Sequence record: NC_100372.1
Reading direction: 5' to 3' (one strand)
Length of the DNA stretch: 64,000 bases
Source: a phage
Shown here: positions 39,076 through 58,550 of the stretch, piece after piece
Layout: each line of letters begins with the position of its first letter
Position numbering within the stretch: position 1 is the first letter of the stretch
The notes under the pieces: model-generated
Told to the model about the DNA's origin: nothing
What the model saw: the letters and a program-made list of their open reading frames with translations, nothing else
The model's database searches: none
Translations under genes and position numbers: made by a program

Positions 39076-39078
39076 TCA

Positions 39079-39107
39079 TTGACATGACCACATGGACGTG
39101 GTATTGT
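39079..39107 (+). promoter_or_regulatory. sigma70-like promoter (TTGACA-N17-TATTGT)
   Basis: TTGACA 39079-39084, 17-nt spacer, TATTGT 39102-39107; upstream of ORF 39139. Confidence 0.45.
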
Positions 39108-39138
39108 TACCTAGTAAAATGTTAAGAAGGGTTTAACC

Positions 39139-39345
39139 ATGAAAGATTTTCTGTTGGCAATTTTGTTCATGGCAGCATGTCTGGCCTGTGGTGTCGTGTT
39201 TGCAGGTGAAACAGCGTATCTTGTCGATGTATATCGGGACAATGGTAAACGTATTTGCCTTTATGAAACAAGCCAAGGTGAGCTCTACGAGCTTGTTAAA
39301 CAAGGCGAGGCTGGATCTTGTCCTCGGACTCACTTCTTCGAATAA
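39139..39345 (+). CDS. small secreted/lipoprotein-like protein (possible lysis accessory)
   Basis: 68 aa; N-terminal hydrophobic segment LLAILFMAACLACG with possible lipobox Cys; immediately after endolysin. Confidence 0.35.
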   Translation: MKDFLLAILFMAACLACGVVFAGETAYLVDVYRDNGKRICLYETSQGELYELVKQGEAGSCPRTHFFE

Positions 39346-39362
39346 GGTTGGTAGTATGGCTT

Positions 39363-39574
39363 TAGAAGGCACTGATTATATTCACGATTACCGTGGGAGT
39401 GCAGTGTATGTGGGCGATACTGTTGCAGTATACTACGGTTATGGTTCCCTAGAAACAGCGAAGGTCATACAGATCAAGAATGACCGTGCTAAGCTTGAAG
39501 TTTATTACTCTAATGGTGAAAGATCGATTTCTAAGTGGAAAGATGGTCATTGTATGGTCAAATTGGAGGGCTGA
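39363..39574 (+). CDS. hypothetical protein
   Basis: Start set at ATG 39363 with RBS AAGGTTGG (ORF track start 39188 overlaps previous gene); 70 aa. Confidence 0.3.
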
Positions 39575-40038
39575 TGGAAGACGGACGTTTAATGAAGTCT
39601 GAACGCAGGCTTATTGTGCAGCTGATCCCAGAAACAGCTTGGTATAATAATCTCCGAAACGCTGTGAAGAAGAGTGAGTGGGATAAGATCCGTAAGAAGT
39701 GCTACAGAGAAGCCAACTATACTTGTGAGGTGTGCGGCGGTAAAGGCAGCAAACATCCGGTGGAGTGTCATGAACTTTACACTTTCGAAGAGGGAGTGAT
39801 CCGGCTTGTCGGACTGATAGCGTTGTGCCCAGATTGTCACACATCGGTGCATCCTGGGTTAGCAAATATCCGTGGAAAGTATGCTCAGGCAGTTAATCAG
39901 TTGGCTAAGGTGAATAAGATCACCAAGGGTATGGCAGAGGCCTATTACCGAGACTGCTTTGCAGAATGGCGGGAGCTTAGCAAAGTTCCTGAATGGAGAA
40001 CTGACTTTTCGTGGATAGAGGGTTACCTTGATGGCTAA
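39574..40038 (+). CDS. zinc-finger protein, possible HNH-type nuclease
   Basis: Start set at ATG 39574 overlapping upstream stop (TGATG), RBS GGAGGG; Cys/His clusters CEVCGG...HPVECHELY...CPDCHTSVH. Confidence 0.35.
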   Translation: MEDGRLMKSERRLIVQLIPETAWYNNLRNAVKKSEWDKIRKKCYREANYTCEVCGGKGSKHPVECHELYTFEEGVIRLVGLIALCPDCHTSVHPGLANIRGKYAQAVNQLAKVNKITKGMAEAYYRDCFAEWRELSKVPEWRTDFSWIEGYLDG

Positions 40039-40321
40039 GAAACCTGTAAAAGAGAAATTTGATAAGACAGCTTTTGTATTCGATACACCTCTGGACGACA
40101 TTATTAGAGGTATGCAAGCACTGTATCGAAAGGCTGAATCTGAGCAGTTGTCTGAATCAGAACTTTACTGGCTTGGTTGGTGGGAGTTAAACCTGCCTAA
40201 AGCTGAAAGTTCTTGTCTGAGAACTGTTAAAACGTGCGCCCAAGAAAACGCCGCACTTGGAATCTACCACAAAAGGAAAAGATCAACAAAAAGCTCTCCA
40301 AGAAAGACTAAAAAGTCTTGA
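40028..40321 (+). CDS. hypothetical protein
   Basis: 97-aa ORF with Lys-rich C-terminus. Confidence 0.3.
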   Translation: MMAKKPVKEKFDKTAFVFDTPLDDIIRGMQALYRKAESEQLSESELYWLGWWELNLPKAESSCLRTVKTCAQENAALGIYHKRKRSTKSSPRKTKKS

Positions 40322-40347
40322 CAAAAGTGCTATTAATCTGATATTAT
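40318..40347 (+). promoter_or_regulatory. sigma70-like promoter (TTGACA-N17/18-TATTAT)
   Basis: TTGACA 40318-40323, TATTAT 40342-40347; followed by RBS AGGAGAA and ATG 40381. Confidence 0.6.
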
Positions 40348-40380
40348 CAGTCAGATATTTATAAACTAGGAGAACTAGAC

Positions 40381-40689
40381 ATGCTTAAAATTTTTATTGT
40401 TGAAGATAAAGATATTGTCCAGTTGTATGCAAACGAGAATCATAAAGGTATGATCCTGAAGAAGGCAAGCAACCTTCATGAAAACACCATTCAACCTGGC
40501 GATGTAATTAAGATCTGTGGCTATCTGATACCAGACTCCTTGATGAAAATAACCCACCACTGGGGGTCTAATCCGTTCCTTTTTGAAAAATATTGGGATG
40601 TTGAGTCGCTTATTGCAGAGAGTGATGATGCATTCCATTACAGCATCCAACCATCTTGCAGAGTAACTAACAGGAGGGTCTTTGAGTAG
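40381..40689 (+). CDS. hypothetical protein
   Basis: 102-aa ORF with strong promoter and RBS. Confidence 0.4.
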   Translation: MLKIFIVEDKDIVQLYANENHKGMILKKASNLHENTIQPGDVIKICGYLIPDSLMKITHHWGSNPFLFEKYWDVESLIAESDDAFHYSIQPSCRVTNRRVFE

Positions 40690-41821
40690 AGAATATCCGC
40701 TTATTGAGTCCATAGATTGTCTAGCTGATCTTCTTGAACCTGACGCTATAGTTTATTATGACTTCGATCAGGTTGCATACCAAGCTGCAGCAAGCTGTGA
40801 AAAAAGGACAATTGAGGTAACACATAAAGCCTCCGGACGTAAGAAGGTGTTTAAAACACGAACAGAGTTTTGGGGGAGGCAGAAGAACGCAGTTGGCGGC
40901 TGGTTAAAGGCTGAGAACACCAACCGTGAAGCTGCATGTAAAAAAGCTGGCAAGGAGTTTATTCCGTGGACACGAGAAGATTTCGATGTCTTGGATATCC
41001 AAACCCCTGATCCTGTAGAGAACTGCTTGCACACAATTAAGTGTAAAGCTAATGCAGTCCTTAACTATCTCGGTATTCCTGAAGATCGGTGCGTAGGGGT
41101 GCTTGGAGGAACAGGCAATTTCAGACTAGATCTTCCCATGCCGGAACGATATAAAGCCAACCGTAACAATACTCTTCGACCACTGTTGCTTGAAGATGCA
41201 AGACAGTATCTACAAAAGCAATATAACGCTCAAGTGATCAACGGTATTGAAGCTGACGACTGGTTAGCTATCCAGCAATTTGAAGGTTGGAACCACTACC
41301 AGAAAACAGGAAAGTTCAACAAGTTTATTATCTCTATAGATAAGGACCAGCGAACACTTCCTGGGCTTGTATTCGATCCGATGAGGAACGATAAAGGTGA
41401 TTTTGTAAGAGAGACACCTATGCTCATTGATAACGGTATGGGTAACATATTCATGAAACCAAACGGCGATGTTGGTGGGTATGGAATGTTGTTCTTCGGT
41501 TATCAAATGCTGTGTGGTGACTCGGCTGACAATATTAAGCCTTACCAAGGGCTTATTGGTAAAGGAAAGTTTGGAGATGCATCTGCATTCTCCTTACTGT
41601 CTCAGTGCAGCACACCGAAAGAGATGTGGTTAGCAATTATTGATCAGTATAAAAAATGGTTTCCGAAAGGTGCCGTTAAGTATACTGATTTCAATGGTAT
41701 CGACCGTAGGATTTCCGTAGGCCAGTGGATGAGTATAATTTTTGACTGTTTGTATATGAAGCGAACATTCAATGATCAAACAAAACTTGTTAACGTTCTT
41801 AGAAATGTTGGAGCAATTTGA
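40682..41821 (+). CDS. 5'-3' exonuclease / flap endonuclease (T4 RNase H, T5 D15 family-like)
   Basis: 379 aa; motifs GIEADDW, ISIDKDQRTL, CGDSADNIKPYQGLIG (helix-3-turn-helix); TTG start preceded by AGGAGGG. Confidence 0.6.
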   Translation: MSREYPLIESIDCLADLLEPDAIVYYDFDQVAYQAAASCEKRTIEVTHKASGRKKVFKTRTEFWGRQKNAVGGWLKAENTNREAACKKAGKEFIPWTREDFDVLDIQTPDPVENCLHTIKCKANAVLNYLGIPEDRCVGVLGGTGNFRLDLPMPERYKANRNNTLRPLLLEDARQYLQKQYNAQVINGIEADDWLAIQQFEGWNHYQKTGKFNKFIISIDKDQRTLPGLVFDPMRNDKGDFVRETPMLIDNGMGNIFMKPNGDVGGYGMLFFGYQMLCGDSADNIKPYQGLIGKGKFGDASAFSLLSQCSTPKEMWLAIIDQYKKWFPKGAVKYTDFNGIDRRISVGQWMSIIFDCLYMKRTFNDQTKLVNVLRNVGAI

Positions 41822-42144
41822 TGACTAAAAATTCTGTAGATAATGCAATTATGGAAGCTGTTTTTGAGGATGATCATACAACAGGGACCCTTAAAACAAA
41901 AAATACATTTATTGTTGCTACAGGTATGTGGCGGTTGTATGAAGATGACACTATTGCATACATCCTGTATACTGATGATTACGCAGATGATCGTGTATGG
42001 TCTGCTGTTTTAAAAGAAGATTGCGAGCTGATTGAGGGCGAGCGGTTATGCATGTTTACCAGCGTGGAAACAGACGTTAAGCTTTGCTCTCTTGTGCTAT
42101 TCAAAGACAAAGCTTATTCTCCAGATGAAGAGGAAACAGCATGA
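41818..42144 (+). CDS. hypothetical protein
   Basis: 108-aa ORF, overlapping starts/stops with neighbours. Confidence 0.35.
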   Translation: MMTKNSVDNAIMEAVFEDDHTTGTLKTKNTFIVATGMWRLYEDDTIAYILYTDDYADDRVWSAVLKEDCELIEGERLCMFTSVETDVKLCSLVLFKDKAYSPDEEETA

Positions 42145-42770
42145 GAGAAAGACTGCTGTCTATAGACCAGTCTCTTACCCACACAGCCTGTGTTGTATGG
42201 GACGATGGTAAGCCTGTTCATAAGATTGTGTTACGCACACAAAGCTCATCTGCAAAAGAGAAGAAACCAGGGACGGTTTCTTTTGCAACAGCTGCTGAGC
42301 GTATTGACTGGATCTGCAAACAGGTTAGATATTATATCCACACGCACGGAGTCGATACTGTGGTTATGGAAGGGCTTTCCTTTGGATCGCGAGGTGATGC
42401 CACACGTGAGCTGGCTGGGTTGTTTTACGGTCTTGAAGTTATGCTTTGGGATGCTTTAGCAGATTGTGAAAATGACGGCCTGTTTAAGGTTCACACAGTG
42501 ACACCAACAACTGCCAAAAAGTTTGCTCGTAGTCATCTTCCTGAAGAACTTGCTTTTGAGGAGAAGAAAAAGCTTGACAAAAGGACAGGTAAAGAGCATA
42601 CTGTGAAGAAACCTGTTACGATGGATAAAAAGTTGATGGTTAAGGCCTGCGAAGTATCTGAACCCGGGTTCCTGGATGGGATCAACTTGGTACAAGGTAA
42701 GGCCGATCTCGCAGATGCTTATTGGATAGGCAGGGCGCATCTGGAGGGATTATCGCAAAGCGTAAAATAA
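42141..42770 (+). CDS. putative RuvC-like Holliday junction resolvase
   Basis: 209 aa; N-terminal LSIDQSLTHTACVVWD (catalytic Asp context), VVMEGLSFGSRG (Glu), C-terminal ADLADAYWIG. Confidence 0.45.
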   Translation: MRERLLSIDQSLTHTACVVWDDGKPVHKIVLRTQSSSAKEKKPGTVSFATAAERIDWICKQVRYYIHTHGVDTVVMEGLSFGSRGDATRELAGLFYGLEVMLWDALADCENDGLFKVHTVTPTTAKKFARSHLPEELAFEEKKKLDKRTGKEHTVKKPVTMDKKLMVKACEVSEPGFLDGINLVQGKADLADAYWIGRAHLEGLSQSVK

Positions 42771-43327
42771 GAAAGAAAGCTGTCAAAGCCCCCGTTCATA
42801 GCGGGTGGCTAAAAGATTCTAAGGACATAGCTAACTTTCGGAAAGAATTGTCAGAAGAGCAGGATGGTCTTGATCCGATCTTGTGCGAACCACTTCGTAA
42901 GCCTTGTTTAGATCATGATCATCTGACTGGTCGTTGCAGGGGTGTTTTGTCCCAATGCACTAATACCTTTGAGGGGTATGTGCTTAAATACTGGATGAAA
43001 TACTGTAACGAGTATACAGATTGCAGTTTATCAGAGGCGTTACGCCGGATGGCTGACTATCTGGAGAAAGACTACAGCGACTTCCCGCTCCACAAAAACT
43101 ACAGAGATGATATGACAAAGTTCTTGAGGAGATGCTCTAAAGCTACGATTATTGCACGTGCAGAATCAGATCTCGGTCTTGTCATTAATTCAGAGTATAC
43201 CAAGCATGAGGCTATTGAGGCCTACATGCAGGAGTTTATAAAGAAAACTGAGGAGAGAGATTTCTATGGGGACGAAAAAGGTATTCAATCCTTGCGATTC
43301 AGTTCTGATCAGGATGAAATACCGTAA
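42722..43327 (+). CDS. putative endonuclease VII-like protein (start uncertain)
   Basis: Motif CLDHDHLTGRCRGVLSQCTNTFEG resembles T4 endonuclease VII zinc/HDH core; ORF begins with TTG and overlaps upstream gene by 49 nt. Confidence 0.5.
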   Translation: MDRQGASGGIIAKRKIRKKAVKAPVHSGWLKDSKDIANFRKELSEEQDGLDPILCEPLRKPCLDHDHLTGRCRGVLSQCTNTFEGYVLKYWMKYCNEYTDCSLSEALRRMADYLEKDYSDFPLHKNYRDDMTKFLRRCSKATIIARAESDLGLVINSEYTKHEAIEAYMQEFIKKTEERDFYGDEKGIQSLRFSSDQDEIP

Positions 43328-43499
43328 CTGGAAAGGTGTTGTTGCAGATCGCTGCGTTACTGAGCCTAATTTATGGTTTGGCTCTACAGAGTATCATAAA
43401 GAAGAGCAGTGGTTGATGCATGCATTTGACGTAGATAAGGGCGAATACCGTGACTTCGCTTTAAAAGACATTCTTCAGTTTTACTAAGGAATCTTAACG

Positions 43500-44483
43500 A
43501 TGATGACAAAGTTAACTCTTGAGCAAATTTTAACACTAAAGCAACAGGGATACACTAATAGACAAATTGCTCGTGAATTTTTAGGGCGTGAGTCGCGTGA
43601 GAGCTGGATCCGACTACAGCTTAAACGTGCACAAGAGAATATGTCAGAGATTGTAGGAGAGGCAACGGAGCGCTTCCTTGAAGAACACAAAGGCGCTAAA
43701 GTTTGGGTGTATGATACAGAGACATCCCCAACAAACGGCTGGTTCTTTGGGCACTATAAGACCAACATTCAAACCTGCGGTATTGAAATTATGCCTTATA
43801 TGCTAACTTTCGCAGGTAAATGGTTAGACAGCCCTAGTGTGGTCGACTGTGCTCTTCCTGATTACAAAATGTGGGGCGAGGATATCCACAACGATCTTGA
43901 ACTGATTCAAGATTTGTGGTATTATCTGGATAAATGTGATGTTGCAGTAGCGCACAACTCTGGTTTTGACTGTGGATGGGCCAACCAACGATTTGCATTT
44001 CACGGTTTACCACCAACAAGTCCATACAAAGAGGTTGACACCCTCAAGATGATTAAAAAGGCATTCCGTTTGAATGCAAACACGTTAGAGTATGCATGTA
44101 AATACTTCCAACTGGCCCGACAGAAGCTGATTGACCACACATTTGAAATGTGGATCAAGTGTGTTCATGGTGATCTTGAGGCGTTTAAACAGATGCGGGA
44201 GTATAATGTTGGGGACATCTTGTCTCTTGAAGGCCTGTATTTGCTGGCGCGTCCGTTTGCTAAGCAGCACCCTAACATGTCGTTGTACTACCAAGATGAG
44301 GAGTCAAAAGTTCGTTGCCCACGTTGTGGTGGAGAACACCTTCACGAGGAAGAAGCTTTGGCGTATACTCAGCTGAGTGCATTTAAAACATACCGCTGCG
44401 AAGGTTGTGGATCTGTTGTTCGTGATCGTAACAACATCCGTACTAGGGAAGAGATGAAAAACACCCTTATTCAGATAATCTAA
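43500..44483 (+). CDS. DEDDy-type 3'-5' exonuclease-like protein with N-terminal HTH and C-terminal zinc ribbon
   Basis: 327 aa; HTH-like LTLKQQGYTNRQIAREF; exo motifs VYDTETS (Exo I), AHNSGFD (Exo II), YNVGDILSLEGLY (Exo III YxxxD); C-terminal CPRCGG...CEGCGS. Confidence 0.5.
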   Translation: MMTKLTLEQILTLKQQGYTNRQIAREFLGRESRESWIRLQLKRAQENMSEIVGEATERFLEEHKGAKVWVYDTETSPTNGWFFGHYKTNIQTCGIEIMPYMLTFAGKWLDSPSVVDCALPDYKMWGEDIHNDLELIQDLWYYLDKCDVAVAHNSGFDCGWANQRFAFHGLPPTSPYKEVDTLKMIKKAFRLNANTLEYACKYFQLARQKLIDHTFEMWIKCVHGDLEAFKQMREYNVGDILSLEGLYLLARPFAKQHPNMSLYYQDEESKVRCPRCGGEHLHEEEALAYTQLSAFKTYRCEGCGSVVRDRNNIRTREEMKNTLIQII

Positions 44484-44490
44484 CAAATAG

Positions 44491-44519
44491 AGGGAGGCTT
44501 GCGCCTCCCTTTTCCTTTT
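44491..44519 (+). terminator. rho-independent terminator
   Basis: AGGGAGGC-TTGC-GCCTCCCT hairpin followed by TTTCCTTTT, directly after the stop at 44483. Confidence 0.6.
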
Positions 44520-44528
44520 GGAGGCACT

Positions 44529-45335
44529 TTGAGCAAGAAAGAGTCCAACGACAAATATTACACAGACCCCGAGTATGCAGAATATCTTGTTGGTAAAGTA
44601 AAAGGTAAGTATGGGAATTGTGCATACGTTGAGCCTTCTGCTGGAAAGGGTTCTTTTTCAAAACTATTTTCAGAGATACTGTCGTATGATTTGGTACCAG
44701 ATCCTGAATTTGAAGGCCCAACCCCGTGTATTAAGGCAAACTTCTTAGAGGTGTACCCCAAGGCCGATGTATTCATAGGTAATCCTCCATTCGGCAAAAA
44801 TTCGTCTTTAGCTTGCAAGTTCTTTAACCACTGTGCATCATTGCTAGAGCCTGGTGGAGCTATAGCCTTCATCTTGCCACGGACTTTTGAAAAAATATTT
44901 TTTGCAAACAAACTGGACATGTCGATGCACCTTATTTACAGCGAAAGGTGCCCCAAGAACTCGTTTTTACTTAACGGCAAACCTTATGACGTGCCATGTG
45001 TTTTCCAAATTTGGGAGAAAAAGGTGTGCAATAGGGACCCTGTAGAGATCGGGGAGAATAAGTTATTTTCTTTTAGCACACCGGACGATTACGACTTCTG
45101 TATAAGACGTGTTGGGTATAATGCTGGGAAAGTATTGGGAGAGGATGACCCAAAATCTGAAGAATCAACATATTTCATAAAATCTTTAGTTGATGGTGTT
45201 GACAGAGTGTTTGCTGAGTGCTATTCTTCTTTTCAAGAAGAAGCAGGTAAGACTGCTGGAATGAAGAGTATAGGCAAGAAAGAACTACAATACATTTTGG
45301 AGACCAGGTATGATCAAAAGTATAGACTTGACTAA
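44529..45335 (+). CDS. DNA N6-adenine (amino) methyltransferase
   Basis: Start set at TTG 44529 after RBS GGAGG (ORF track start 44499 would read through the terminator hairpin); motif I EPSAGKGSF, motif IV GNPPFG, N-terminal YYTDPEYAEYL. Confidence 0.65.
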   Translation: MSKKESNDKYYTDPEYAEYLVGKVKGKYGNCAYVEPSAGKGSFSKLFSEILSYDLVPDPEFEGPTPCIKANFLEVYPKADVFIGNPPFGKNSSLACKFFNHCASLLEPGGAIAFILPRTFEKIFFANKLDMSMHLIYSERCPKNSFLLNGKPYDVPCVFQIWEKKVCNRDPVEIGENKLFSFSTPDDYDFCIRRVGYNAGKVLGEDDPKSEESTYFIKSLVDGVDRVFAECYSSFQEEAGKTAGMKSIGKKELQYILETRYDQKYRLD

Positions 45336-45768
45336 AGAGCTTACTGATGCAAAAGCTTTTGGTGAGACAGCTGTGCAAAGGGGGCAGGCTATGGGGCTGG
45401 CACTACCTTTTGTCTTAAAAGAGCATTTTACAGATTTTCAGCTTATCCGTGGTGAAAAGGGGATGCTTATTCTGGAGCATAAGCTGAGTAAGAAACGTTA
45501 TAAAGTTGTTTTTAATTCTAAAGCTCCAACAAAACTTGGATTCAGAACTTACAATCTCAACCCTTCTTATACTAAGGGTGTTGGAAGAGTGGAACAGCAA
45601 CATCTCAGTGCTAGAGCTTCTTTAGCCCCTTTGATGCTAAATTTCTCAGGTGTTGCTTTGGGATACCTGGATAAGAAAAGAGTTCTTCATGTTCGTTTTA
45701 CAGACTTCGTAACGCTTTTAGCTAACAACGAAGTAGATGAAAAGGGACGTGTAAAAACAAACTTCTAA
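45310..45768 (+). CDS. hypothetical protein
   Basis: 152-aa ORF. Confidence 0.35.
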   Translation: MIKSIDLTKELTDAKAFGETAVQRGQAMGLALPFVLKEHFTDFQLIRGEKGMLILEHKLSKKRYKVVFNSKAPTKLGFRTYNLNPSYTKGVGRVEQQHLSARASLAPLMLNFSGVALGYLDKKRVLHVRFTDFVTLLANNEVDEKGRVKTNF

Positions 45769-45783
45769 TAACGTGCAGTATGA

Positions 45784-45987
45784 TTGGAGACCGCAATGAC
45801 ACCAGAGTTAACAATTCCAGACAGCTTTTCAGAAAGCTTTATCCCAGAAATGATGAAGAAGATGCAATCACTGCTTGATCAGATTGAGGAGGCTGTTTGG
45901 GAAGACGATGCTGTAGTAGCTAACGAGCTGGTAGATAAGTGTAAAAGTATTATTGATGCAATTGAAGAATACCACGGAGGTTTTTAA
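45784..45987 (+). CDS. hypothetical acidic protein
   Basis: 67-aa ORF; stop overlaps next start. Confidence 0.3.
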   Translation: METAMTPELTIPDSFSESFIPEMMKKMQSLLDQIEEAVWEDDAVVANELVDKCKSIIDAIEEYHGGF

Positions 45988-46589
45988 TGGATATTATTGT
46001 TCTTAATGCTCCACCAAGTTCTGGAAAAGACCATATCGCAGATCTTTTGTTGGAAGCCATTCCAAACTCGCATCACCGCGAGGTAAAGGAAATGCTATTC
46101 AGTGTGGCAATTAAGGCAGCGGGTATTTCACCACAGTTGTGGAATGCACTCTATGATCGCCGCTACAAAGAAGAACCGTGCCCGTTCTTAATGATAGACG
46201 GCAAGCATGTTTCTCCGCGAGAATGGATGATCCATTGTAGTGAAAATCTGATTAAACCTATCTTTGGTGAAGACGCTTTCGGTAAGGCCGCAGTCGCATC
46301 CTTGAAGAAAGATTTCCCTGAAGGTAAAGGGGTTGTTGTTTACTCCGATGGTGGCTTCAAAGAGGAGCTGGCATGCCTTGGCGAGTACGCATACAGCACA
46401 GGTGGCGATCTTCTACTGTTCCGTATCCACCGTGCAGGATATGATTGGGGAAATGATTCCAGAACTTACCTTAGCCTAGAGAAGAACGGGATAAAAGGTA
46501 TCGAGTTTGATGTTGTTAACCCTGAGGGGTCTCCTTGGGAGTGCGCATCTGAGATTGTGTGCAAGTATATTGATGCTAAAGAGGTCTGA
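45987..46589 (+). CDS. deoxynucleoside monophosphate kinase (T4 gp1-like)
   Basis: 200 aa; N-terminal LNAPPSSGKDHIADLLL parallels the T4 dNMP kinase LSGVKRSGKDTTADFIM P-loop. Confidence 0.55.
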   Translation: MDIIVLNAPPSSGKDHIADLLLEAIPNSHHREVKEMLFSVAIKAAGISPQLWNALYDRRYKEEPCPFLMIDGKHVSPREWMIHCSENLIKPIFGEDAFGKAAVASLKKDFPEGKGVVVYSDGGFKEELACLGEYAYSTGGDLLLFRIHRAGYDWGNDSRTYLSLEKNGIKGIEFDVVNPEGSPWECASEIVCKYIDAKEV

Positions 46590-46594
46590 GAACA

Positions 46595-47188
46595 ATGCTG
46601 ATCGGAATTGATGTAGATTTAACACTGGTAGACTCAGGAACAGCATGGTGGGAGTGGCTAGAGCGTTTATATGGTCCAGCCAGCAAGACAGTCGCTAAAC
46701 CTTCTAACGGACTGATGTATTACGATCTGTCAAAGTATTGGCCTGATCGCCCCAAAGAAAACATCATAGGGCCTTTTGATTTCTGGAGTGACCCGTTCCT
46801 CTACGACTTTCTTAAGCCTGAAGAGGGGGCTATTGAGGTTATGAAAGATTTGGTGGCTCGTGGTCACAAGCTTGCATTTATCTCTGTATGCAAGAAAGGT
46901 CACCTTGCATCTAAATCAAGGTTCTTAAAGCGTTGGACCAGCGATTTTATGGATCTGGACGATCACACCCAGGGTCACGGCTTCTACGCCACACATTTCA
47001 AAGGTAATGTGGCTGTAGATGTTATAATTGACGACAGACATGAATACCTGAACCAATTCGCTTCACGCCCTGAAGTTATTAAAATCTTAAAAGACACTCC
47101 TTATGAGCAATTCGAGGAGTTGAAGGTCAGTGTTGACTATACCACCAATAGTTGGTATAAAATAGGAAAGTTTTTAGAAGGTATTTGA
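46595..47188 (+). CDS. putative HAD-family nucleotidase/phosphatase
   Basis: 197 aa; N-terminal IGIDVDLTLVDS (HAD motif I-like), VIIDDRHE (motif III-like). Confidence 0.35.
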   Translation: MLIGIDVDLTLVDSGTAWWEWLERLYGPASKTVAKPSNGLMYYDLSKYWPDRPKENIIGPFDFWSDPFLYDFLKPEEGAIEVMKDLVARGHKLAFISVCKKGHLASKSRFLKRWTSDFMDLDDHTQGHGFYATHFKGNVAVDVIIDDRHEYLNQFASRPEVIKILKDTPYEQFEELKVSVDYTTNSWYKIGKFLEGI

Positions 47189-47189
47189 A

Positions 47190-47390
47190 ATGGGCAGATG
47201 TTCTAAAGGTGGCGATCCTGTAGTCAGATACGGTGACTGGCTAGAGGTATATGATCTTGGAGGTAAGCTAGTGTATGCCTCCAGGATCACCCAAGACATG
47301 TGCTCTGATATGTTTAACAGATACCTTGCATTTAAGGCCAACATAAACCCAGACGAAATTTCCAAAATTAAAACAAGGAGAGCTAAATAA
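47190..47390 (+). CDS. hypothetical protein
   Basis: 66-aa ORF between nucleotidase-like gene and thyX. Confidence 0.3.
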   Translation: MGRCSKGGDPVVRYGDWLEVYDLGGKLVYASRITQDMCSDMFNRYLAFKANINPDEISKIKTRRAK

Positions 47391-48373: not shown

Positions 48374-48402
48374 GCCTATCACAGCGATAGGTAACTTTTG
48401 TG

Positions 48403-48431
48403 TTGACTAATAGCATTAGATAATCTATAAT
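48403..48431 (+). promoter_or_regulatory. consensus sigma70 promoter (TTGACT-N17-TATAAT) with hairpin at +1 region
   Basis: TTGACT 48403-48408, 17-nt spacer, TATAAT 48426-48431; 8-bp inverted repeat TGGCTCAC / GTGAGCCA at 48434-48455; RBS GGGAGA and ATG 48472. Confidence 0.65.
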
Positions 48432-48471
48432 AGTGGCTCACTTTGTTGGTGAGCCAGAAAGGGAGACAGAT

Positions 48472-48933
48472 ATGAGTGATGTTATGATTCCTAAAAAGAC
48501 ATTTATTTCAGTTACTTTAGATTTCCTATCTACCGTTCCTGGGTTTAACGTTCGCACACGAAACGGTCTTCGAGCTGCACTCTTTGCCGTAGGGTTTGAT
48601 TTAAAAAATATTGATGTTCTTCGTGGAAAAAACGTTAGATGCAAAAATAAACCAACTCATTATCGAAAGGCCGATGTATTTGCTGGTGTCATGCGTGCAG
48701 ACTTTAGATACCCACAAATGTATAATGGTGTAGATATTCTAGATGTAGATAAAGCACCCGGTGAGACAATGCTTGTTCAAGATCTTCCGTATGATATCCC
48801 CGTAGAGGATCGTGTCAATGTAAGAAAGTATACAAAACAATCTGAAAAGGCTGAAGATATTCATATTGTTGATGAACCTTTCAATTTTGAAGATCTGCAT
48901 CGCCTGGAAAAATTATTCGGTATTGAAAGCTAA
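48472..48933 (+). CDS. hypothetical protein
   Basis: Start set at ATG 48472 (ORF track start 48433 lies within the promoter -10 / leader hairpin); 153 aa. Confidence 0.4.
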   Translation: MSDVMIPKKTFISVTLDFLSTVPGFNVRTRNGLRAALFAVGFDLKNIDVLRGKNVRCKNKPTHYRKADVFAGVMRADFRYPQMYNGVDILDVDKAPGETMLVQDLPYDIPVEDRVNVRKYTKQSEKAEDIHIVDEPFNFEDLHRLEKLFGIES

Positions 48934-48943
48934 GGTGGTGAAG

Positions 48944-49174
48944 ATGAGTCATAACTCCAAGTGGAAGGATCTTGGTTTTGCAAGTCGGGCAGAATATGTT
49001 GGTTGGCTTTGGTTCAATGGCCTGACAAACGATATTAAAATGTATGATGATGTTTATTATGACGAGTATACAGGTAAAATTATAAATATCTCTGTAGAAG
49101 AGGATACCTTTACCCAACAAGATACTGATACCTGCCTTGATAAATACGTTGATGAAGTGGAGGAAGCAAATTGA
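48944..49174 (+). CDS. hypothetical protein
   Basis: Start set at ATG 48944 with RBS AAGGTGG; 76 aa; stop overlaps nrdA start. Confidence 0.3.
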   Translation: MSHNSKWKDLGFASRAEYVGWLWFNGLTNDIKMYDDVYYDEYTGKIINISVEEDTFTQQDTDTCLDKYVDEVEEAN

Positions 49175-51486: not shown

Positions 51487-51494
51487 TTTAAAAA

Positions 51495-51513
51495 GGGGCT
51501 TCGGCCCCATTTT
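51495..51513 (+). terminator. hairpin terminator/attenuator between nrdA and nrdB
   Basis: GGGGC-TTCG-GCCCC followed by ATTTT. Confidence 0.45.
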
Positions 51514-51525
51514 AGAGGTAGAATA

Positions 51526-52614
51526 ATGGCTGTATTTAATACTGAGAACACTGCTCATAAAACTGGTGATTATCCGCTGTTTTTAGGACAGCAGATGGGG
51601 ATGTACGACTCTATTAACAAAAAGTACCCACAGCTGTTTGAACTATACAAAAAACAAAAAGAACAAGATTGGGCAGAGGACGAAGTAGATTTGTCACAGT
51701 CTATTTCGGATTTCGTAACATGCTCAAAGTCAACTTACGATGTAATGGTGCAGACACTGATGTGGCAATGGGAGGCAGACAGTGTTGCAGCAAGATCTAT
51801 CATTTGTCTGTTTTCACCATTTATCACTAATAGTGAACTTTTCACCTTGTTGATGAAGCAGTCTGAGATCGAGGTTCTTCATGCACTAACTTACTCAGAG
51901 ATTGTTAGACAATGCCTTCCTAATGCTCGTGAGATTATAGAAGAGATTCAGGAAAACCAGAACGTGCTAAGCAGGTCTGGAGTTATTGTCAAATATATGC
52001 AAGAGCTTGAGGTTATTGGTGCAAAATACCGACTGGATCCTTCCAGTGTTGAAGAAGATGTTGTACGGAAATGTATCCTTAGAGCACTTTTTGCACTTTT
52101 AGCTCTAGAGAGTATTGAGTTTATTGCAAGTTTTGCATGTACGTTCGCAGTAGCTGAGCAAGGTATTTTTGTTCAAGTTGCACAACTCGTTCAAAAAATT
52201 ATGCTTGATGAGATGCTGCATTCGAAAGGTGATTTTGCTATCATCGATATCCTGCTTGATGATCCTACATGGGAGCAAAGCTTTCTTGAGATTAAGGGAG
52301 AGTTAAAAGAGATTCTTGACGAAGTACGGATCAAGGAGTACGGTTGGAGTGACTATATTTTCAGCGAAGGAAGGGCGATTATAGGGCTTAACTCACCATT
52401 ACTTAAAGAATGGGTTGACTATAACTGTTCACCGATTTATGATTACTATAACATCGACAAAGACTTTGTGCCGCCAACAAAAGACCCGTTACCGTTTATG
52501 CAGGTGTGGATGAAACCTTCACTGCAACAGACGGCTAACCAGGAAATGTCTAACACCGACTATCGCGTCAACACAACTGTTAATGACGCTGAAGAAGAAA
52601 TTTGGGAGTTTTAA
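51526..52614 (+). CDS. nrdB: ribonucleoside-diphosphate reductase beta subunit (class I)
   Basis: 362 aa; follows nrdA; helical ferritin-like sequence with conserved Glu/His ligand contexts (EIEVLHALTYSEIV, LDEMLHSKG). Confidence 0.8.
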   Translation: MAVFNTENTAHKTGDYPLFLGQQMGMYDSINKKYPQLFELYKKQKEQDWAEDEVDLSQSISDFVTCSKSTYDVMVQTLMWQWEADSVAARSIICLFSPFITNSELFTLLMKQSEIEVLHALTYSEIVRQCLPNAREIIEEIQENQNVLSRSGVIVKYMQELEVIGAKYRLDPSSVEEDVVRKCILRALFALLALESIEFIASFACTFAVAEQGIFVQVAQLVQKIMLDEMLHSKGDFAIIDILLDDPTWEQSFLEIKGELKEILDEVRIKEYGWSDYIFSEGRAIIGLNSPLLKEWVDYNCSPIYDYYNIDKDFVPPTKDPLPFMQVWMKPSLQQTANQEMSNTDYRVNTTVNDAEEEIWEF

Positions 52615-52617
52615 TAT

Positions 52618-52896
52618 ATGAGCTGTGAAAAATCTTTTTTCATTATCATCTACGGTAAGGATAACTGCCCACATTGTGTAAGAGCAAAAGAATTTGCAGC
52701 AAGCAAAGGTATACCTTTCGTATACAAGACGCTCGGTGAAGGATACACAAAAGAAGAGCTTATTGAGAAGTGTAGTCCATTTGTTCCCAGAACGTTGCCT
52801 CAGATCTTCTTGGAAAGCAACCTTGATAGTGTCCACATAGGTGGTGCTGACGATTTCATCTCTTTTGTTAAGAATGGTTTTGGAGAGAAAAAGTGA
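52618..52896 (+). CDS. glutaredoxin / NrdH-like redoxin
   Basis: 92 aa; CPHC active site (GKDNCPHCVRAKEF); between nrdB and nrdD. Confidence 0.7.
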   Translation: MSCEKSFFIIIYGKDNCPHCVRAKEFAASKGIPFVYKTLGEGYTKEELIEKCSPFVPRTLPQIFLESNLDSVHIGGADDFISFVKNGFGEKK

Positions 52897-55016
52897 AAGT
52901 TGTAAAACGGGACGGTAGAGAAGAGGTCTATAACGGAGTTAAGGTAATCAAGGCGGCAGAGTCCGCCTTACTTGAGTCTGGGCATACTGAAGAAGAAGCT
53001 TACCGGATCGCTTGTGCGATTAATGAAGTTGTTGCCAACAATCTACCAACCGACCAGTGCACGATCTCTGTAAAAAATATCCATATCCTTGTTGAAGATG
53101 CTCTTATGGATATGGGTTTAAAATGTGCAGCCAGAGAATATATCCAGTATAGACAGACAAGAGATAATAACAGAGAGGCAGGTGGAAAACTGCTTGCAGA
53201 TATTAGTGGCTTCTTGGATCGAACTTGTGATGAATTTACAAAAGAAAACGCAAATAAGCCCACTAATCATGTACATACTCATCGTGACCTGCTTGCAGGT
53301 ATCCTTAGCAAACACCTTGCATCAACACAGATACTGCCAGATCGTGTCTCCGAAGAGCACAACAAGGGATTCATCCATGTGCATGATCTTGACTATCTGA
53401 TCAGTCCGTTAACAAACTGCTGTTTGGTGAATTATCCGGATATGCTGGAAAACGGATTCAACATTGGCAACGCCCATGTCAGTAAGCCGAAGTCAATAGG
53501 GGTTGCAACAACAATCCTCAGCCAAATCTCTAGTGCAGTAGCTAGTGCTCAATATGGTGGTCAGACCATGAGCCATATTGATCATTATCTGGCGCAGTAT
53601 GCTGAAGCAACCTATGAGAAGAATCTTAAATTTTGTCAGGAACATTGGTTGCCGGATGCTGAGACTGTTGCAATGCAAATGACGGATAAAGACGTGTTTG
53701 ATAGTATGCAAACTTTGCTATACCAAATCAATACGTTAACTTCTGTCAACGGGCAAACCCCATTCATCACATTAAGTTTAGGACTGGATACCTCAATCTT
53801 TGGTAGAATGATTACCAAAAACTACCTGAAAGTCCACAAAATGGGTCTTGGTGAAGAACGTATCACACCTGTGTTCCCTAAGGTGCTGTTCTTCCTGGAG
53901 GAGGGTATCAACATGAACCCCGGGGATCCTAACTATGATTTGAAACGATTAGCTCTGGAATGCTCTGCAGAGCGGATTTATCCTGACTTCGTATCTGTAC
54001 CACTAAATAGAAAAGTGACAGGTTCAACAGAAGGTAATGTCACAAGCATGGGTTGCCGGAGTTTTCTTAGCAAATACAATGACTTGGAAACAGGAGAGGA
54101 GAAATACCTTGGCAGATTTAACTTAGGTGTTGTTAGCCTTAACCTACCAATGATTGCGGCAAAAGCTAAAACGGAAGGTGTTGATTTCTTTGCAGTTCTT
54201 GACGAGTACTTGGATCTGGCATACGAGGCTCATCTTGTAAGGGTTAACCGTCTAAAAGGAACAAAGGCAGGGCAGAACCCCATCATGTGGTGTGAAGGAG
54301 CTCTTGCTCGCCTGGATCCTGAAGAGAGTATTGATAAACTCTTCTATGACGGGTATGCTTCCATAAGTATTGGATATATTGGTGTGTATGAAACCTGCCA
54401 GATTTTAGGCAGAGAGGGAGACAAGTCCTTAGCTCTTGGGATCCTTCAGCACATGAAAGACGCTTGTGATCGGTACAAAAAAGAAAGTGGTCTGGCATTC
54501 AGCTTGTACGGCACTCCTTCAGAGAGCTTGTGCTATAAGGCTGCAACATGTCTAGATCGTGAATATCCTGAAGTGTTGAAGCACGAGCACGAATACCTTA
54601 CCAACAGTTTCCACCAGCCCGTGTGGATCAATAGCTCACCTTTTGACAAGTGGAAGTATGAGGAAGGTTTTGCTATGATCTCTTCTGGCGGTAACATTGG
54701 ATACATAGAAACACCTAACCTGAAAAACAACCTGGATGCTTTGGAATCCCTTGTCGATTTCGGGTATAAACACATTATGTATTTTGGTATTAACCAACCT
54801 GTGGATAAATGTCTTAAGTGCGGATTCTCTGGTGAGTTCAGTGCAACAGCTAAAGGCTTTGTATGCCCAGAGTGCGGAAACCATGAAGAGGGAACGATCA
54901 GTGTGATTAGACGTGTATCTGGGTATCTGTCCAGTCCAAACTCCCGACCTTACAACAAAGGTAAGCAAGCGGAAGTTATAGAACGGGTTAAGCACTACGG
55001 CAGCTGTGGTTGCTGA
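52893..55016 (+). CDS. nrdD: anaerobic ribonucleoside-triphosphate reductase (class III)
   Basis: 707 aa; N-terminal ATP-cone, C-terminal zinc site CLKCGF...CPECG and glycyl-radical motif RRVSGYLSS; GTG start. Confidence 0.9.
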   Translation: MKVVKRDGREEVYNGVKVIKAAESALLESGHTEEEAYRIACAINEVVANNLPTDQCTISVKNIHILVEDALMDMGLKCAAREYIQYRQTRDNNREAGGKLLADISGFLDRTCDEFTKENANKPTNHVHTHRDLLAGILSKHLASTQILPDRVSEEHNKGFIHVHDLDYLISPLTNCCLVNYPDMLENGFNIGNAHVSKPKSIGVATTILSQISSAVASAQYGGQTMSHIDHYLAQYAEATYEKNLKFCQEHWLPDAETVAMQMTDKDVFDSMQTLLYQINTLTSVNGQTPFITLSLGLDTSIFGRMITKNYLKVHKMGLGEERITPVFPKVLFFLEEGINMNPGDPNYDLKRLALECSAERIYPDFVSVPLNRKVTGSTEGNVTSMGCRSFLSKYNDLETGEEKYLGRFNLGVVSLNLPMIAAKAKTEGVDFFAVLDEYLDLAYEAHLVRVNRLKGTKAGQNPIMWCEGALARLDPEESIDKLFYDGYASISIGYIGVYETCQILGREGDKSLALGILQHMKDACDRYKKESGLAFSLYGTPSESLCYKAATCLDREYPEVLKHEHEYLTNSFHQPVWINSSPFDKWKYEEGFAMISSGGNIGYIETPNLKNNLDALESLVDFGYKHIMYFGINQPVDKCLKCGFSGEFSATAKGFVCPECGNHEEGTISVIRRVSGYLSSPNSRPYNKGKQAEVIERVKHYGSCGC

Positions 55017-55019
55017 TAC

Positions 55020-55049
55020 TTGACAAAAGCCACAAGGATGTGGCATATT
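55020..55049 (+). promoter_or_regulatory. sigma70-like promoter (TTGACA-N18-CATATT)
   Basis: TTGACA 55020-55025; -10 CATATT 55044-55049; upstream of small Cys-rich ORF and nrdG. Confidence 0.4.
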
Positions 55050-55079
55050 GTTGTTACACAGTAAACTAGGAGGTGCAGT

Positions 55080-55196
55080 ATGTCGTCAGGTATTTATAAA
55101 ATTTGCAAGTGTGGTTGTCATTGCAATCTTCGTTGGTGCAAGGCACTGGATGATTTTATTTGGCATTGTCCTAAATGTGATGCGGAGTACTTATGA
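55080..55196 (+). CDS. small Cys-rich zinc-ribbon-like protein (38 aa) coupled to nrdG
   Basis: RBS AGGAGG then ATG 55080; MSSGIYKICKCGCHCNLRWCKALDDFIWHCPKCDAEYL; stop TGA overlaps nrdG ATG (ATGA). Below the ORF-track size cutoff. Confidence 0.4.
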   Translation: MSSGIYKICKCGCHCNLRWCKALDDFIWHCPKCDAEYL

Positions 55197-55666
55197 ATAT
55201 TGTCGGATACACAGAAATATCCTACACCGAAGGGCCAGGTCTCAGGACGGCCTTGTGGGTATCTGGGTGCCCACACGCTTGTCCTGGTTGCTTTAATCAA
55301 GCATTTTGGTCCAAAGATAAGGGAAGAGAATTCACCGAAGAAGATTTGCAGAGAATTTTGTCAGATTTGGACAATGAATCTATATGCGGTATTTCTTTGC
55401 TTGGTGGAGAGCCTTTGGCTACGTATAATGAGCCCGGTATTATTAAACTTATGAGGAGAATTAAGGAAAAGTTTGGTGACAAGAAAACTATTCTTGTGTA
55501 TACTGGGTTCACATTTGAGCATATCTCTAGTGATGTTCTTGAGCTGGCTGATATCATCATTGATGGCAAGTATGTAAAAGATTTACCAACAAAGAAACCA
55601 TTCCGAGGCAGCGATAACCAAAGAATGTTTAAAAAGGTAGCAGGCGGTTGGGTTCAGGTTGACTAA
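55193..55666 (+). CDS. nrdG: anaerobic ribonucleotide reductase activating protein (radical SAM)
   Basis: 157 aa; CxxxCxxC radical-SAM cluster motif CPHACPGC; follows nrdD. Confidence 0.85.
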   Translation: MNIVGYTEISYTEGPGLRTALWVSGCPHACPGCFNQAFWSKDKGREFTEEDLQRILSDLDNESICGISLLGGEPLATYNEPGIIKLMRRIKEKFGDKKTILVYTGFTFEHISSDVLELADIIIDGKYVKDLPTKKPFRGSDNQRMFKKVAGGWVQVD

Positions 55667-55669
55667 TCG

Positions 55670-55699
55670 TTGACAAAGCTTTGGTAAGTTGGTTATAAT
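55670..55699 (+). promoter_or_regulatory. consensus sigma70 promoter (TTGACA-N17/18-TATAAT)
   Basis: TTGACA 55670-55675, TATAAT 55694-55699; followed by RBS GAGGAGG and ATG 55729. Confidence 0.6.
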
Positions 55700-55728
55700 T
55701 ATCGTAATGAAAGCAGAGGAGGTGCCAA

Positions 55729-55842
55729 ATGGCTAAAAAAGCCTTGAAGAAGGCGTACAAGAAAGAGATTGCGCTTGAGCTTAAGAAAAAACACAAGCGT
55801 GAAAAGAAATATCATGAAGATGAAGAGGGGGTGCAGCAGTGA
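55729..55842 (+). CDS. small Lys-rich basic protein (37 aa)
   Basis: MAKKALKKAYKKEIALELKKKHKREKKYHEDEEGVQQ; strong promoter and RBS; stop overlaps GTG start of next gene. Below ORF-track cutoff. Confidence 0.35.
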   Translation: MAKKALKKAYKKEIALELKKKHKREKKYHEDEEGVQQ

Positions 55843-56189
55843 CACAAGAGCGTATTGATTTAGCCAGTAAGTTTGTAGATCTCATTTTGCCACGGTTGGT
55901 TACTCAACATGCAGACGCTATTTCTACCAATCTTGATGGCTTACGCCTAATGCTGAACCGAACAGATGACCCACGTATTCGGGCCGATTTAGAGGCCTCT
56001 GCCAACAAACTGGAAAAGTTCTTGCAAGTAGACACGCAAGAAGCCTTGCACAAGATTATGGTGGAAGGTTTCTCTAAAGAATTCACCGTTAAAGAGCTTA
56101 AGGAGCTGATCCGCCAAGAAGAGATGAATATCCGAGTTCAGGCTGTTGCAAGCAGCATGGAAGCGGCTATTGAAAAACTGTTGCAGTAA
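55839..56189 (+). CDS. hypothetical protein
   Basis: 116-aa helical ORF. Confidence 0.4.
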   Translation: MTQERIDLASKFVDLILPRLVTQHADAISTNLDGLRLMLNRTDDPRIRADLEASANKLEKFLQVDTQEALHKIMVEGFSKEFTVKELKELIRQEEMNIRVQAVASSMEAAIEKLLQ

Positions 56190-56227
56190 AAGTCCTTGAC
56201 ACATCTCAATCTGAAAGGAGTCCCAAC

Positions 56228-57016
56228 ATGGGTCGAGCTAAAGAAACAAAACGCATGCGTGATGAAGCCAGAGAGGCTCGCAAATCTGATCGCCTGCGTA
56301 AGGCTGCTGAGAAATTTGCTGACGAACGAGAGCACACAGCTCCAGCTCTCCGACCAATGAACAAAAAGCAGCAAAAGTATCTTGATTATCTAGGATCGCG
56401 TAAGATTATTATTGTAAACGGTGTGTTTGGATCCGGTAAGACATTCATGGCATCCGCATATGCAGGTGATCTTTTGCGTAAGAACGAGATTGATAAGATC
56501 ATTGTTGCACGCCCTTACGTTCAGACAGGAAAGACTTCAGGGTTTAAACCTGGAAACGCAATGCAGAAACTGTGGCCCTATCTCCGAAGCATGATGGACA
56601 CGATTTGTCGTCGTGTTGGCAAAGGTGCTTTTGCCGCAATGCTGGGAGATGGTCAGAACAGTCGTATCGAGATCTGTGAAGTTGAAAGCATTCGTGGTCG
56701 TAGTTTCGATGAGCGATGCTTTGTCCTAATTGACGAGGCACAGCAAACTAACCCTGAAGAGATGTTGTCAATTATCACAAGGATCTCTGATCAGGCCACA
56801 CTTGTAATCATGGGTGATAATAGCCAACGTGACATCCCTGGTAAGTCTGGGCTTGCATGGGTAACGGATTTCTTTACTCGTCATCCAGATCCTGAGGTTG
56901 GGATGATTAGCTTTGATAGCCCAGATGATGTTGTTCGTTCTGGATTGGGCCGTCAGATTGCACTCAATCTTATTAAGGATCGTGCAAATCATATTTGGAC
57001 ACCTGTTTCCGAGTAA
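56228..57016 (+). CDS. phoH: PhoH-like ATPase
   Basis: 262 aa; Walker A GVFGSGKTF, Walker B-like VLIDEAQ, typical PhoH length. Confidence 0.85.
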   Translation: MGRAKETKRMRDEAREARKSDRLRKAAEKFADEREHTAPALRPMNKKQQKYLDYLGSRKIIIVNGVFGSGKTFMASAYAGDLLRKNEIDKIIVARPYVQTGKTSGFKPGNAMQKLWPYLRSMMDTICRRVGKGAFAAMLGDGQNSRIEICEVESIRGRSFDERCFVLIDEAQQTNPEEMLSIITRISDQATLVIMGDNSQRDIPGKSGLAWVTDFFTRHPDPEVGMISFDSPDDVVRSGLGRQIALNLIKDRANHIWTPVSE

Positions 57017-57023
57017 TACAAAA

Positions 57024-57040
57024 GGGTGGTTATTCCACCC
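57024..57040 (+). terminator. hairpin (weak terminator) after phoH
   Basis: GGGTGG-TTATT-CCACCC followed by TTAAATATCT. Confidence 0.35.
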
Positions 57041-57059
57041 TTAAATATCTAAAACAATT

Positions 57060-57088
57060 ATTGACAAACAGATAAGTTTTAGGTATTA
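57060..57088 (+). promoter_or_regulatory. sigma70-like promoter (TTGACA-N17-TATTAT)
   Basis: TTGACA 57060-57065, 17-nt spacer, TATTAT 57083-57088; RBS AAGGAGAA, ATG 57115. Confidence 0.6.
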
Positions 57089-57114
57089 TCGAACAAAACA
57101 AGGAGAATGACAGT

Positions 57115-57426
57115 ATGGCTACAATACAAGAGAGACTGAATAAGATATACTGCCTATTTGTCTATAACGGTGAGACAATTTTGGCAAACAAAGGATACAA
57201 GAATGTGTGGATTAAGGACAGCGGTGGTAACATAATCAACTTGGCGCTACTACGTGAGCGAAGACACCGATTCTTCACTGAGTCCCGTGTTATTGAAAGC
57301 AACACATTTTACAGAACAGGGGATAAAGTAATTGTTGACAATGACACGTGGTATGTGGTAGACTGGCAATCGTTGACCTGTGATGCTTCTGACAATTGTA
57401 AGTATTCCATGGTAATTGCTAAATAA
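57115..57426 (+). CDS. hypothetical protein
   Basis: 103-aa ORF with own promoter. Confidence 0.4.
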   Translation: MATIQERLNKIYCLFVYNGETILANKGYKNVWIKDSGGNIINLALLRERRHRFFTESRVIESNTFYRTGDKVIVDNDTWYVVDWQSLTCDASDNCKYSMVIAK

Positions 57427-58537: not shown

Positions 58538-58550
58538 ACATTAATCTTAA

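Follow-up and report, generated by a model that had tools for sequence, protein, structure and literature searches.

Probable sigma-70-type promoters in the plus-strand metabolic arm of a Vequintavirus genome

A 64,000-nucleotide (nt) stretch of phage DNA (sequence record NC_100372.1), referred to here as a whole as the window, carries six close matches to the sigma-70 promoter consensus on its plus strand, between positions 39,079 and 57,088. Are these matches promoters, which polymerase would read them, and what would they express? A preliminary description regarded them as a family with a fixed 17-bp spacing, used by host RNA polymerase early or midway in infection, several of them serving single small genes put forward as prime anti-host candidates. 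The analysis reported here indicates that the sites are very probably ordinary sigma-70-type promoters of the genus Vequintavirus, placed as internal re-initiation points in the metabolic arm of the genome. Five of the six are strong and one, at 55020, is weak.

A megablast search of positions 39000–58000 against phage genomes matched 143 records, nearly all of them Vequintavirus (E. coli myoviruses resembling rV5 and FV3). The best match was phage vB_EcoM-ECP26 (hereafter ECP26; 99.8%), and FV3, rV5, PDX and others matched at 93–96%. By sequence similarity, the window is therefore assigned to Vequintavirus. The annotation of ECP26, 99.0% identical over the plus arm (32655–64000), was carried over as the gene map of the window. 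GC skew and the orientation of open reading frames (ORFs) place a structural arm on the minus strand, from position 1 to about 33.7 kb. The plus-strand arm starts at about 33.8 kb and holds DNA ligase, endolysin, exonuclease, thyX, nrdAB, grx, nrdDG, phoH and a ClpP-like gene. Intergenic DNA makes up 7.35% of the window.

Sequence, surplus and conservation of the six sites

All six sites were found at, or no more than 1 nt from, the positions first given for them:

39079..39107, plus strand: P39079, TTGACA-17-TATTGT with a TG extended -10; dyad CCACATGGACGTGG in the spacer; orthologue of rV5 P090
40318..40347, plus strand: P40318, TTGACA-18-TATTAT with an A-rich upstream region; orthologue of rV5 P093
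48403..48431, plus strand: P48403, TTGACT-17-TATAAT; orthologue of rV5 P107 (P106 in RefSeq)
55020..55049, plus strand: P55020, weak candidate, TTGACA-18-CATATT with a TG extended -10; 10.9 bits
55670..55699, plus strand: P55670, TTGACA-18-TATAAT, 12 of 12 consensus matches; orthologue of rV5 P118
57061..57089, plus strand: P57061 (57060 in the preliminary description), TTGACA-17-TATTAT; orthologue of rV5 P121

The -35 hexamer is TTGACA at five sites and TTGACT at one; every -10 has A as its second and T as its sixth base, and 55020 lacks the initial T. The spacing is not fixed at 17 bp as had been claimed, being 17 nt at three sites and 18 nt at three. The -10 variants listed for the family (TATAAT, TATTAT and TAATAT) describe four of the sites and fail for 39079 and 55020. 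The strong ribosome-binding sites that had been noted are present: each start codon lies 26–41 nt after the -10 and is preceded by a GGAG-type Shine-Dalgarno sequence.

Near-consensus sites were much more frequent in the window than expected. The strict pattern TTGACW-N16-18-TAWWAT gave 8 matches against 0.36 expected. A weight-matrix scan, which had been suggested as a check, bore the prediction out: 23 sites scored at least 13.4 bits, the cut-off used, against 2.75 ± 1.6 (maximum 8) in a background of 200 dinucleotide-preserving shuffles, an enrichment of about 8-fold. Eleven of the 23 were intergenic, all of them sense-oriented and 26–71 nt upstream of a start codon or of the transfer RNA (tRNA) cluster, where chance would provide about 0.1. 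In the whole ECP26 genome, 67 sites reached at least 13 bits, 37 of which had a Shine-Dalgarno sequence and an ORF downstream; among these 37, the spacer was 17 nt in 28, TTGAC was present in 35–37, TG preceded the -10 in about half, and an A-rich tract lay upstream of the -35. A -35 near TTGACA, a -10 near TATAAT, a spacer of 17 ± 1 nt and co-oriented upstream placement beyond chance, the traits of sigma-70 (RpoD) promoters, were all found.

Stronger support than that of the original consensus searches came from comparative data on hexamer versus spacer variation, survival of the promoters beside insertions, and retention in other genera. When the six promoter regions were aligned in 10 other Vequintavirus genomes, 6 of 72 hexamer columns varied, against 43 of 105 spacer columns and 79 of 270 other intergenic columns (Fisher test, p = 1e-6 for hexamers versus spacers and 1e-5 for hexamers versus all non-hexamer intergenic columns). 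With 55020 set aside, none of the 30 columns of the -35 varied. The spacers of P40318 and P55670 differ at 8–9 positions with their length unchanged, and at P57061 a 3-nt deletion beside the -10 separates the window from rV5 with the 17-nt spacing kept. Hexamers that are kept while spacers vary in sequence at constant length are, as read from such alignments, the classic signature of promoters. ORFs of about 930 nt and HNH genes have been inserted in promoter-bearing intergenic regions (navn 18450–19382 and 21421–22350; WM 18147–19079 and 336–1052; FV3 5313–5996). Where an HNH gene stands upstream of P39079 (FV3 and WM) or a 930-nt ORF upstream of P57061 (navn), homology restarts just upstream of the -35.

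In a diverged IMG/VR genome (70–78% protein identity), P55670 is kept as TTGACA-18-TATAAT and P57061 as TTGACA-17-TATCAT, with diverged spacers. The Seunavirus PVP-SE1 has TTGACA-17-TATCTT upstream of the orthologue of 48472..48933, and TTGACA-17-TATGAT within nrdG, upstream of the orthologue (gp113) of 55729..55842. At the six junctions in PVP-SE1, an intergenic promoter is kept at the P48403 position only, the others having no intergenic space. The promoter before the 48472..48933 orthologue is kept in other lineages down to 33% protein identity.

The finding is correct but ordinary, as prediction and annotation of these promoters in this phage group date back to 2013. In rV5, 33 sigma-70-type promoters were predicted genome-wide, 11 of them with an extended -10, and Table S4 of that study holds orthologues of 39079, 40318, 48403, 55670, 57061, 16579 (minus), 29864 (minus) and 30269 (minus) (Kropinski et al. 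2013, Virol J 10:76). The rV5 sites occupy the same gene junctions with near-identical sequences, and 55020 is missing from the list. Accordingly annotated records exist: five of the six orthologues are labelled 'regulatory: Sigma70-type promoter' in the rV5 RefSeq record (NC_011041.1), and the Gotham record has PhagePromoter features at all six positions, including the equivalent of 55020. The present finding adds little beyond confirmation and opens no new question on host takeover.

Operons and small ORFs downstream of the sites

Terminator scans and RNA folding were used to map the transcription units. Transcripts would begin with leaders of about 20–35 nt, after which come a Shine-Dalgarno sequence and then the first of several cistrons. 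The following plus-strand units were delimited:

P39079 unit: four genes, 39139..39345, 39356..39574, an HNH gene and 40031..40321; runs into P40318
P40318 unit: nine genes, 40381..44483, including a 102-amino-acid (aa) ORF, exonuclease, RNaseH-like, EndoVII and a polymerase/exonuclease subunit; ends at 44489–44512
P48403 unit: 48472..48933, 48944..49174 and nrdA; ends at the hairpin 51495–51508
P55020 unit: 38-aa Cys-rich ORF 55080..55196 and nrdG; runs into P55670
P55670 unit: 37-aa peptide 55729..55842, 116-aa ORF 55839..56189 and phoH; ends at the hairpin 57022–57042
P57061 unit: 103-aa ORF 57115..57426 and ClpP-like 57488..58537; ends at the terminator 58549–58570

The boundaries are set by these hairpins, given with their folding energies (dG) and z-scores (z) where calculated:

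44489..44512, plus strand: strong intrinsic terminator, dG -19.5, followed by a T-run; orthologue of rV5 t099
48374..48392, plus strand: hairpin after the thyX stop codon, dG -9.0, z -3.2, weak and terminator-like; immediately upstream of P48403
51495..51508, plus strand: terminator-like hairpin GGGGCTTCGGCCCC followed by ATTTT, after nrdA; orthologue of rV5 t109
57022..57042, plus strand: hairpin after phoH, dG -13.6, z -4.0, with no plus-strand T-run; immediately upstream of P57061
58549..58570, plus strand: intrinsic terminator GCCCTCTTCGGAGGGC followed by TTTTAT; orthologue of rV5 t122

This layout does not agree with the single-gene units that had been proposed. Three of the four small ORFs concerned overlap or abut the next gene with no terminator between them, and the fourth is separated from it by a 61-nt gap devoid of a hairpin. 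Thus, 40381..40689 shares 8 nt with the exonuclease gene and opens the nine-gene operon that ends at terminator 44489; 48472..48933 is followed after 10 nt by 48944..49174 and then nrdA, and no terminator intervenes before 51495; 55729..55842 and 55839..56189 have 4 nt in common, phoH being next; and the 61-nt gap lies between 57115..57426 and the ClpP-like gene 57488..58537. The flagged small ORFs are first cistrons of operons of two to nine genes and not single-gene cassettes. Two adjacent units also interlock, the -35 of P40318 overlapping the last codons of 40031..40321.

The proposal that these ORFs are prime anti-host candidates found no support, and nothing marks them as anti-host factors. 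No Pfam match was obtained for eight small ORFs, the four flagged ones among them, and their PHROG matches were to families of unknown function or carried inherited labels ('transposase', 'ribonucleotide reductase'). In homology searches, the families of the 153-aa and 103-aa ORFs were confined to Vequintavirinae. AlphaFold models of these two proteins were of low confidence (predicted local distance difference test, pLDDT, 58 and 63), and Foldseek comparison of both models with the PDB returned nothing below E = 0.5. As judged from their sequences, 39139..39345 (68 aa) has an N-terminal segment resembling a signal peptide or lipoprotein signal, and 55729..55842 encodes a lysine-rich basic 37-mer.

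Two further small genes deserve mention. ORF 55080..55196 encodes a 38-aa Cys-rich mini-protein resembling a zinc ribbon, MSSGIYKICKCGCHCNLRWCKALDDFIWHCPKCDAEYL, and shares 4 nt with the start of nrdG; the name 'ribonucleotide reductase' that PHROG gives it seems to be an inherited label and not a demonstrated function. Gene 39356..39574 (72 aa, DUF7205), a small indel gene within the P39079 operon, occurs in the window and in ECP26 and Gotham; the eight other loci compared (FV3, rV5, PDX, SYGMH1, navn, 'Campylobacter phage D1', typing phage 4 and WM) lack it.

Recognition, timing and alternative readings

That host RNA polymerase reads the sites, as had been claimed, is very probable in view of their intergenic sense placement, conserved hexamers and varied spacers. 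Vequintavirus appears to have no RNA polymerase gene of its own, and unmodified E. coli holoenzyme would read TTGACA and TAnnnT placed 17–18 bp apart. About half of the genome-wide family would offer it a TG extended -10, and many members an A-rich UP-like tract. The sites would serve as internal re-initiation points in the nucleotide-metabolism and replication arm, often standing right after a terminator or hairpin (48374/48403 and 57022/57061). The arm would in this way be split into units reaching from P39079 through the HNH region, from P40318 to 44489, from P48403 to 51495, from P55020 (if active) to nrdG, from P55670 to phoH, and from P57061 to 58549.

Known systems place the set in context. 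It resembles E. coli RpoD promoters in its consensus hexamers, its 17 ± 1 spacing, the TG found at -15/-14 in some members and the A-rich upstream sequence, and differs from them in being unusually near-consensus in the -35. Such a -35 is typical of strong phage promoters, for instance the early promoters of T5 and the A-type early promoters of T7. A sigma-70-like early promoter, AAAA(N3)TGTTGAC(N19)TATAAT, has been described in Certrevirus (Buttimer et al. 2020, PMC7344957), which also belongs to Vequintavirinae. Both sets have an A-rich UP-like tract, often a T/G immediately before TTGAC, and a canonical -10, and in both the sites are concentrated in small-ORF regions, with a few in replication and nucleotide-metabolism genes. 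However, Certrevirus is another genus, its sites are not one-to-one orthologous to those studied here, and in the metabolic arm of the window a clear A-tract is found only at P40318 and P57061. Likeness to T4 consists in being a large virulent myovirus fully dependent on host RNA polymerase. The MotA box ((a/t)(a/t)(a/t)TGCTTtA, with TGCTT at -30) was absent from all six sites, and neither the T4 late motif TATAAATA nor the rV5 late motif TGGTAAAATA occurred at any of the six plus-arm sites. Homologues of gp33, gp45 and gp55 were not found in rV5 (Virol J 10:76).

The assignment to an early or middle class is a different matter. Promoters of this type also stand before a tail-region gene, gene 24656..26212 and the tRNAs, and the type therefore implies no such class; judging from gene content, a delayed-early or middle metabolic arm is a reasonable guess.

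Two of the sites are related to each other. The modules of P39079 (39079–39125) and P55020 (55020–55070), which immediately follow the stop codons of two long genes (endolysin and nrdD, respectively), are paralogous and share TTGACA-N3/4-CCACAnGGAnGTGG-...-TTGTTAC-NN-AGTAAA. Their local alignment scores 29, more than any of 1000 shuffles (maximum 25), and the whole ECP26 genome contains the module just twice. The spacer dyad may be an operator, a combined terminator-promoter or a 3'-end hairpin of the upstream gene. CCAC-N6-GTGG was rejected as a widespread operator, since the window and the ECP26 genome hold just the two promoter copies and one unrelated intragenic match.

Several observations weigh against taking all six sites as host-read promoters. 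No experimental transcript or 5'-end mapping or expression data for Vequintavirus were found in the searched literature, and we therefore infer activity and timing, as well as start sites and strength. The -10 of P39079, TATTGT, is sub-optimal. P55020 reaches only 10.9 bits, has a -10 (CATATT) without the conserved first T, and has been replaced in three of the 10 relatives. Srd-like anti-sigma candidates are encoded by rV5-like phages (Virol J 10:76), so promoter recognition may be modified during infection. Finally, 12 of the high scorers lie within genes, and the coding strand has an excess of TTGACA (25 sense versus 8 antisense in the plus arm), so that part of the enrichment could stem from the composition of coding sequences. 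These last two facts are also what would be expected if the sites were chance or codon-driven consensus matches with no promoter function, as is the result of a loose 9-of-12 consensus scan, which showed no excess (46 found, 41.9 expected). The signal therefore resides only in near-consensus sites, and low-scoring ones such as 55020 are unacceptable on score alone. However, the roughly 8-fold enrichment of high scorers, the 11 intergenic sense sites, the conservation of hexamers beside variable spacers, and the retention of promoters across genera at the same gene junction make such an origin highly improbable. By shuffles and position, it is in effect ruled out at every site but 55020, where it is possible; the score of 55020 falls in the chance range (shuffles give about 30 sites of at least 11 bits and about 70 of at least 10 bits).

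Site 55020, and less so 39079, could instead be mainly a 3'-end hairpin or weak terminator of the upstream gene (nrdD or endolysin), with a secondary likeness to a -35 and -10, an alternative that we consider possible and hold only tentatively. Directly after the nrdD stop codon, the P55020 spacer forms the hairpin GCCACAAGGATGTGGC (dG -9.3, z -2.3), followed by ATATTGTTGTT, a T-rich tail. The low score is in line with such a role, and so is the absence of 55020 from rV5 Table S4. In WM, 'Campylobacter phage D1' and navn, a 933-nt ORF stands in place of the whole promoter-hairpin module, which likewise fits. Against this, 7 of 10 relatives keep TTGACA, the TG extended -10 and the 31-nt distance to AGGAGG-ATG, the paralogue P39079 reaches 13.5 bits, and the Gotham record has a PhagePromoter call at the equivalent position. 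The hairpin itself has a short stem and an interrupted U-tract, and terminator and promoter roles are not mutually exclusive. As a weak promoter, P55020 draws its support from its position, perfect -35, extended -10 and partial conservation. A third reading accepts the promoters as real and has some of them timed by phage factors (Srd-like anti-sigma proteins, helix-turn-helix (HTH) regulators or CCAC-N6-GTGG operators), the arm being delayed or middle rather than immediate-early. It would fit the use of the same promoter type before structural genes and tRNAs, the finding that UP-element-bearing promoters are densest in small-ORF regions outside the 39079–57088 span, the uniqueness in the genome of the two paralogous dyad-bearing modules, the Srd-like protein noted for rV5, and the HTH protein encoded at 32317..32667. 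However, the link between regulator and site is putative, the SYGMH1 variant of the dyad carries two changes that are not compensatory, neither a MotA box nor a T4 late motif occurs at the six sites, and the rV5 authors argued that modification of RNA polymerase may not occur; we consider phage-timed control possible and hold it only tentatively. Recognition by host sigma-70 holoenzyme is the reading that we prefer.

Leader structures and other features of the window

Besides the promoters, one RNA structure in the metabolic arm is conserved in position:

48434..48456, plus strand: leader stem-loop of 9 bp, dG -15.2, z -4.1, between P48403 and the Shine-Dalgarno sequence

Across 14 IMG/VR loci (33–78% protein identity), a promoter plus a stable hairpin of unrelated sequence was found upstream of the 48472..48933 orthologue in 6 of 7 lineages, with the hairpin 3–13 nt before the Shine-Dalgarno sequence and z-scores from -1.3 to -5.0. 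No T-run follows 48434–48456, which therefore is not a terminator; most likely it would act as a 5' stabiliser or translational operator. Two devices would be at work if the stem-loop exerted post-transcriptional control of ribonucleotide-reductase expression and the spacer dyad were an operator for a phage regulator, or a terminator-promoter coupling the post-endolysin block with the nrdG unit. That both are genuine in this sense seems unlikely. The operon map of the nucleotide-metabolism arm, together with the conserved leader hairpin of the nrdA operon, is modestly useful for phage engineering and annotation.

The minus-strand sites 16579 and 29864, mentioned in the preliminary description, are both present, and a further one was found:

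16551..16579, minus strand: promoter, TTGACA-17-TAAAAT with TGG; orthologue of rV5 P051; upstream of 16034..16507, in the tail-gene region
29836..29864, minus strand: promoter, TTGACA-17-TAATAT; orthologue of rV5 PtRNA; upstream of the 7-gene tRNA cluster
30241..30269, minus strand: promoter, TTGACA-17-TAAAAT; orthologue of rV5 P074; upstream of 29874..30212

The first of these also fits the proposed 'late' motif of rV5, TGGTAAAATA. At 26311 on the minus strand, the same promoter type precedes gene 24656..26212, just downstream of the terminase gene. An orthologue of rV5 P105 that had not been listed before, GTGTTGACT-N17-TATAAAATAGG, lies at 47133–47170, inside the 3' end of 46595..47188 and just upstream of 47190..47390; its TGGTATAAAATA is a near-match that resembles the proposed late motif of rV5 and the T4 late TATAAATA. 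Intragenic sense sites at 33419 (minus) and at 38284, 45199, 52415, 57335, 60674 and 62510 (plus) are sigma-70-like and score 13.5–15.7 bits; some intragenic sites, 80–300 nt upstream of the next gene start, may be internal promoters.

In the Rfam search of the window, only tRNAs reached threshold. Within the tRNA cluster, at 29210–29308 on the minus strand, ARAGORN reports a 99-nt 'tRNA-???' with a four-base anticodon (atcc), to which the Rfam tRNA model gives 35.5 bits; it may be an intron-containing, aberrant or pseudo-tRNA.

A 662-nt gap at 31655–32316, which has no credible ORF, adjoins the HTH_36/DUF6945 gene 32317..32667 (minus). It contains four tandem palindromic repeats of 21–22 bp, TGTCCGTATCACGGACA (32160–32245), two helical turns apart, next to a very AT-rich stretch (about 32030–32150) and a GC-rich 280-nt segment (31750–32030; fold z -2.0). 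The gap is 91–99% identical in 118 Vequintavirus records, where it is annotated at most as 'repeat_region', and Rfam returned nothing credible for the 31.6–32.3 kb gap. The origin of replication of rV5 was not located by its authors (Kropinski et al. 2013, Virol J 10:76). Segment 31655–32316 is a candidate replication origin or operator array.

Finally, the window differs from ECP26 at the terminase locus. An unbroken 515-aa ORF at 26315–27862 (minus), the 3' part of which matches the ECP26 large terminase gene, corresponds in ECP26 to a region with an insertion of about 884 nt (ECP26 26428–27311) that encodes an endonuclease VII-like protein and has flanking pieces annotated as separate genes. 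The difference is a mobile-element (intron or homing endonuclease) polymorphism.

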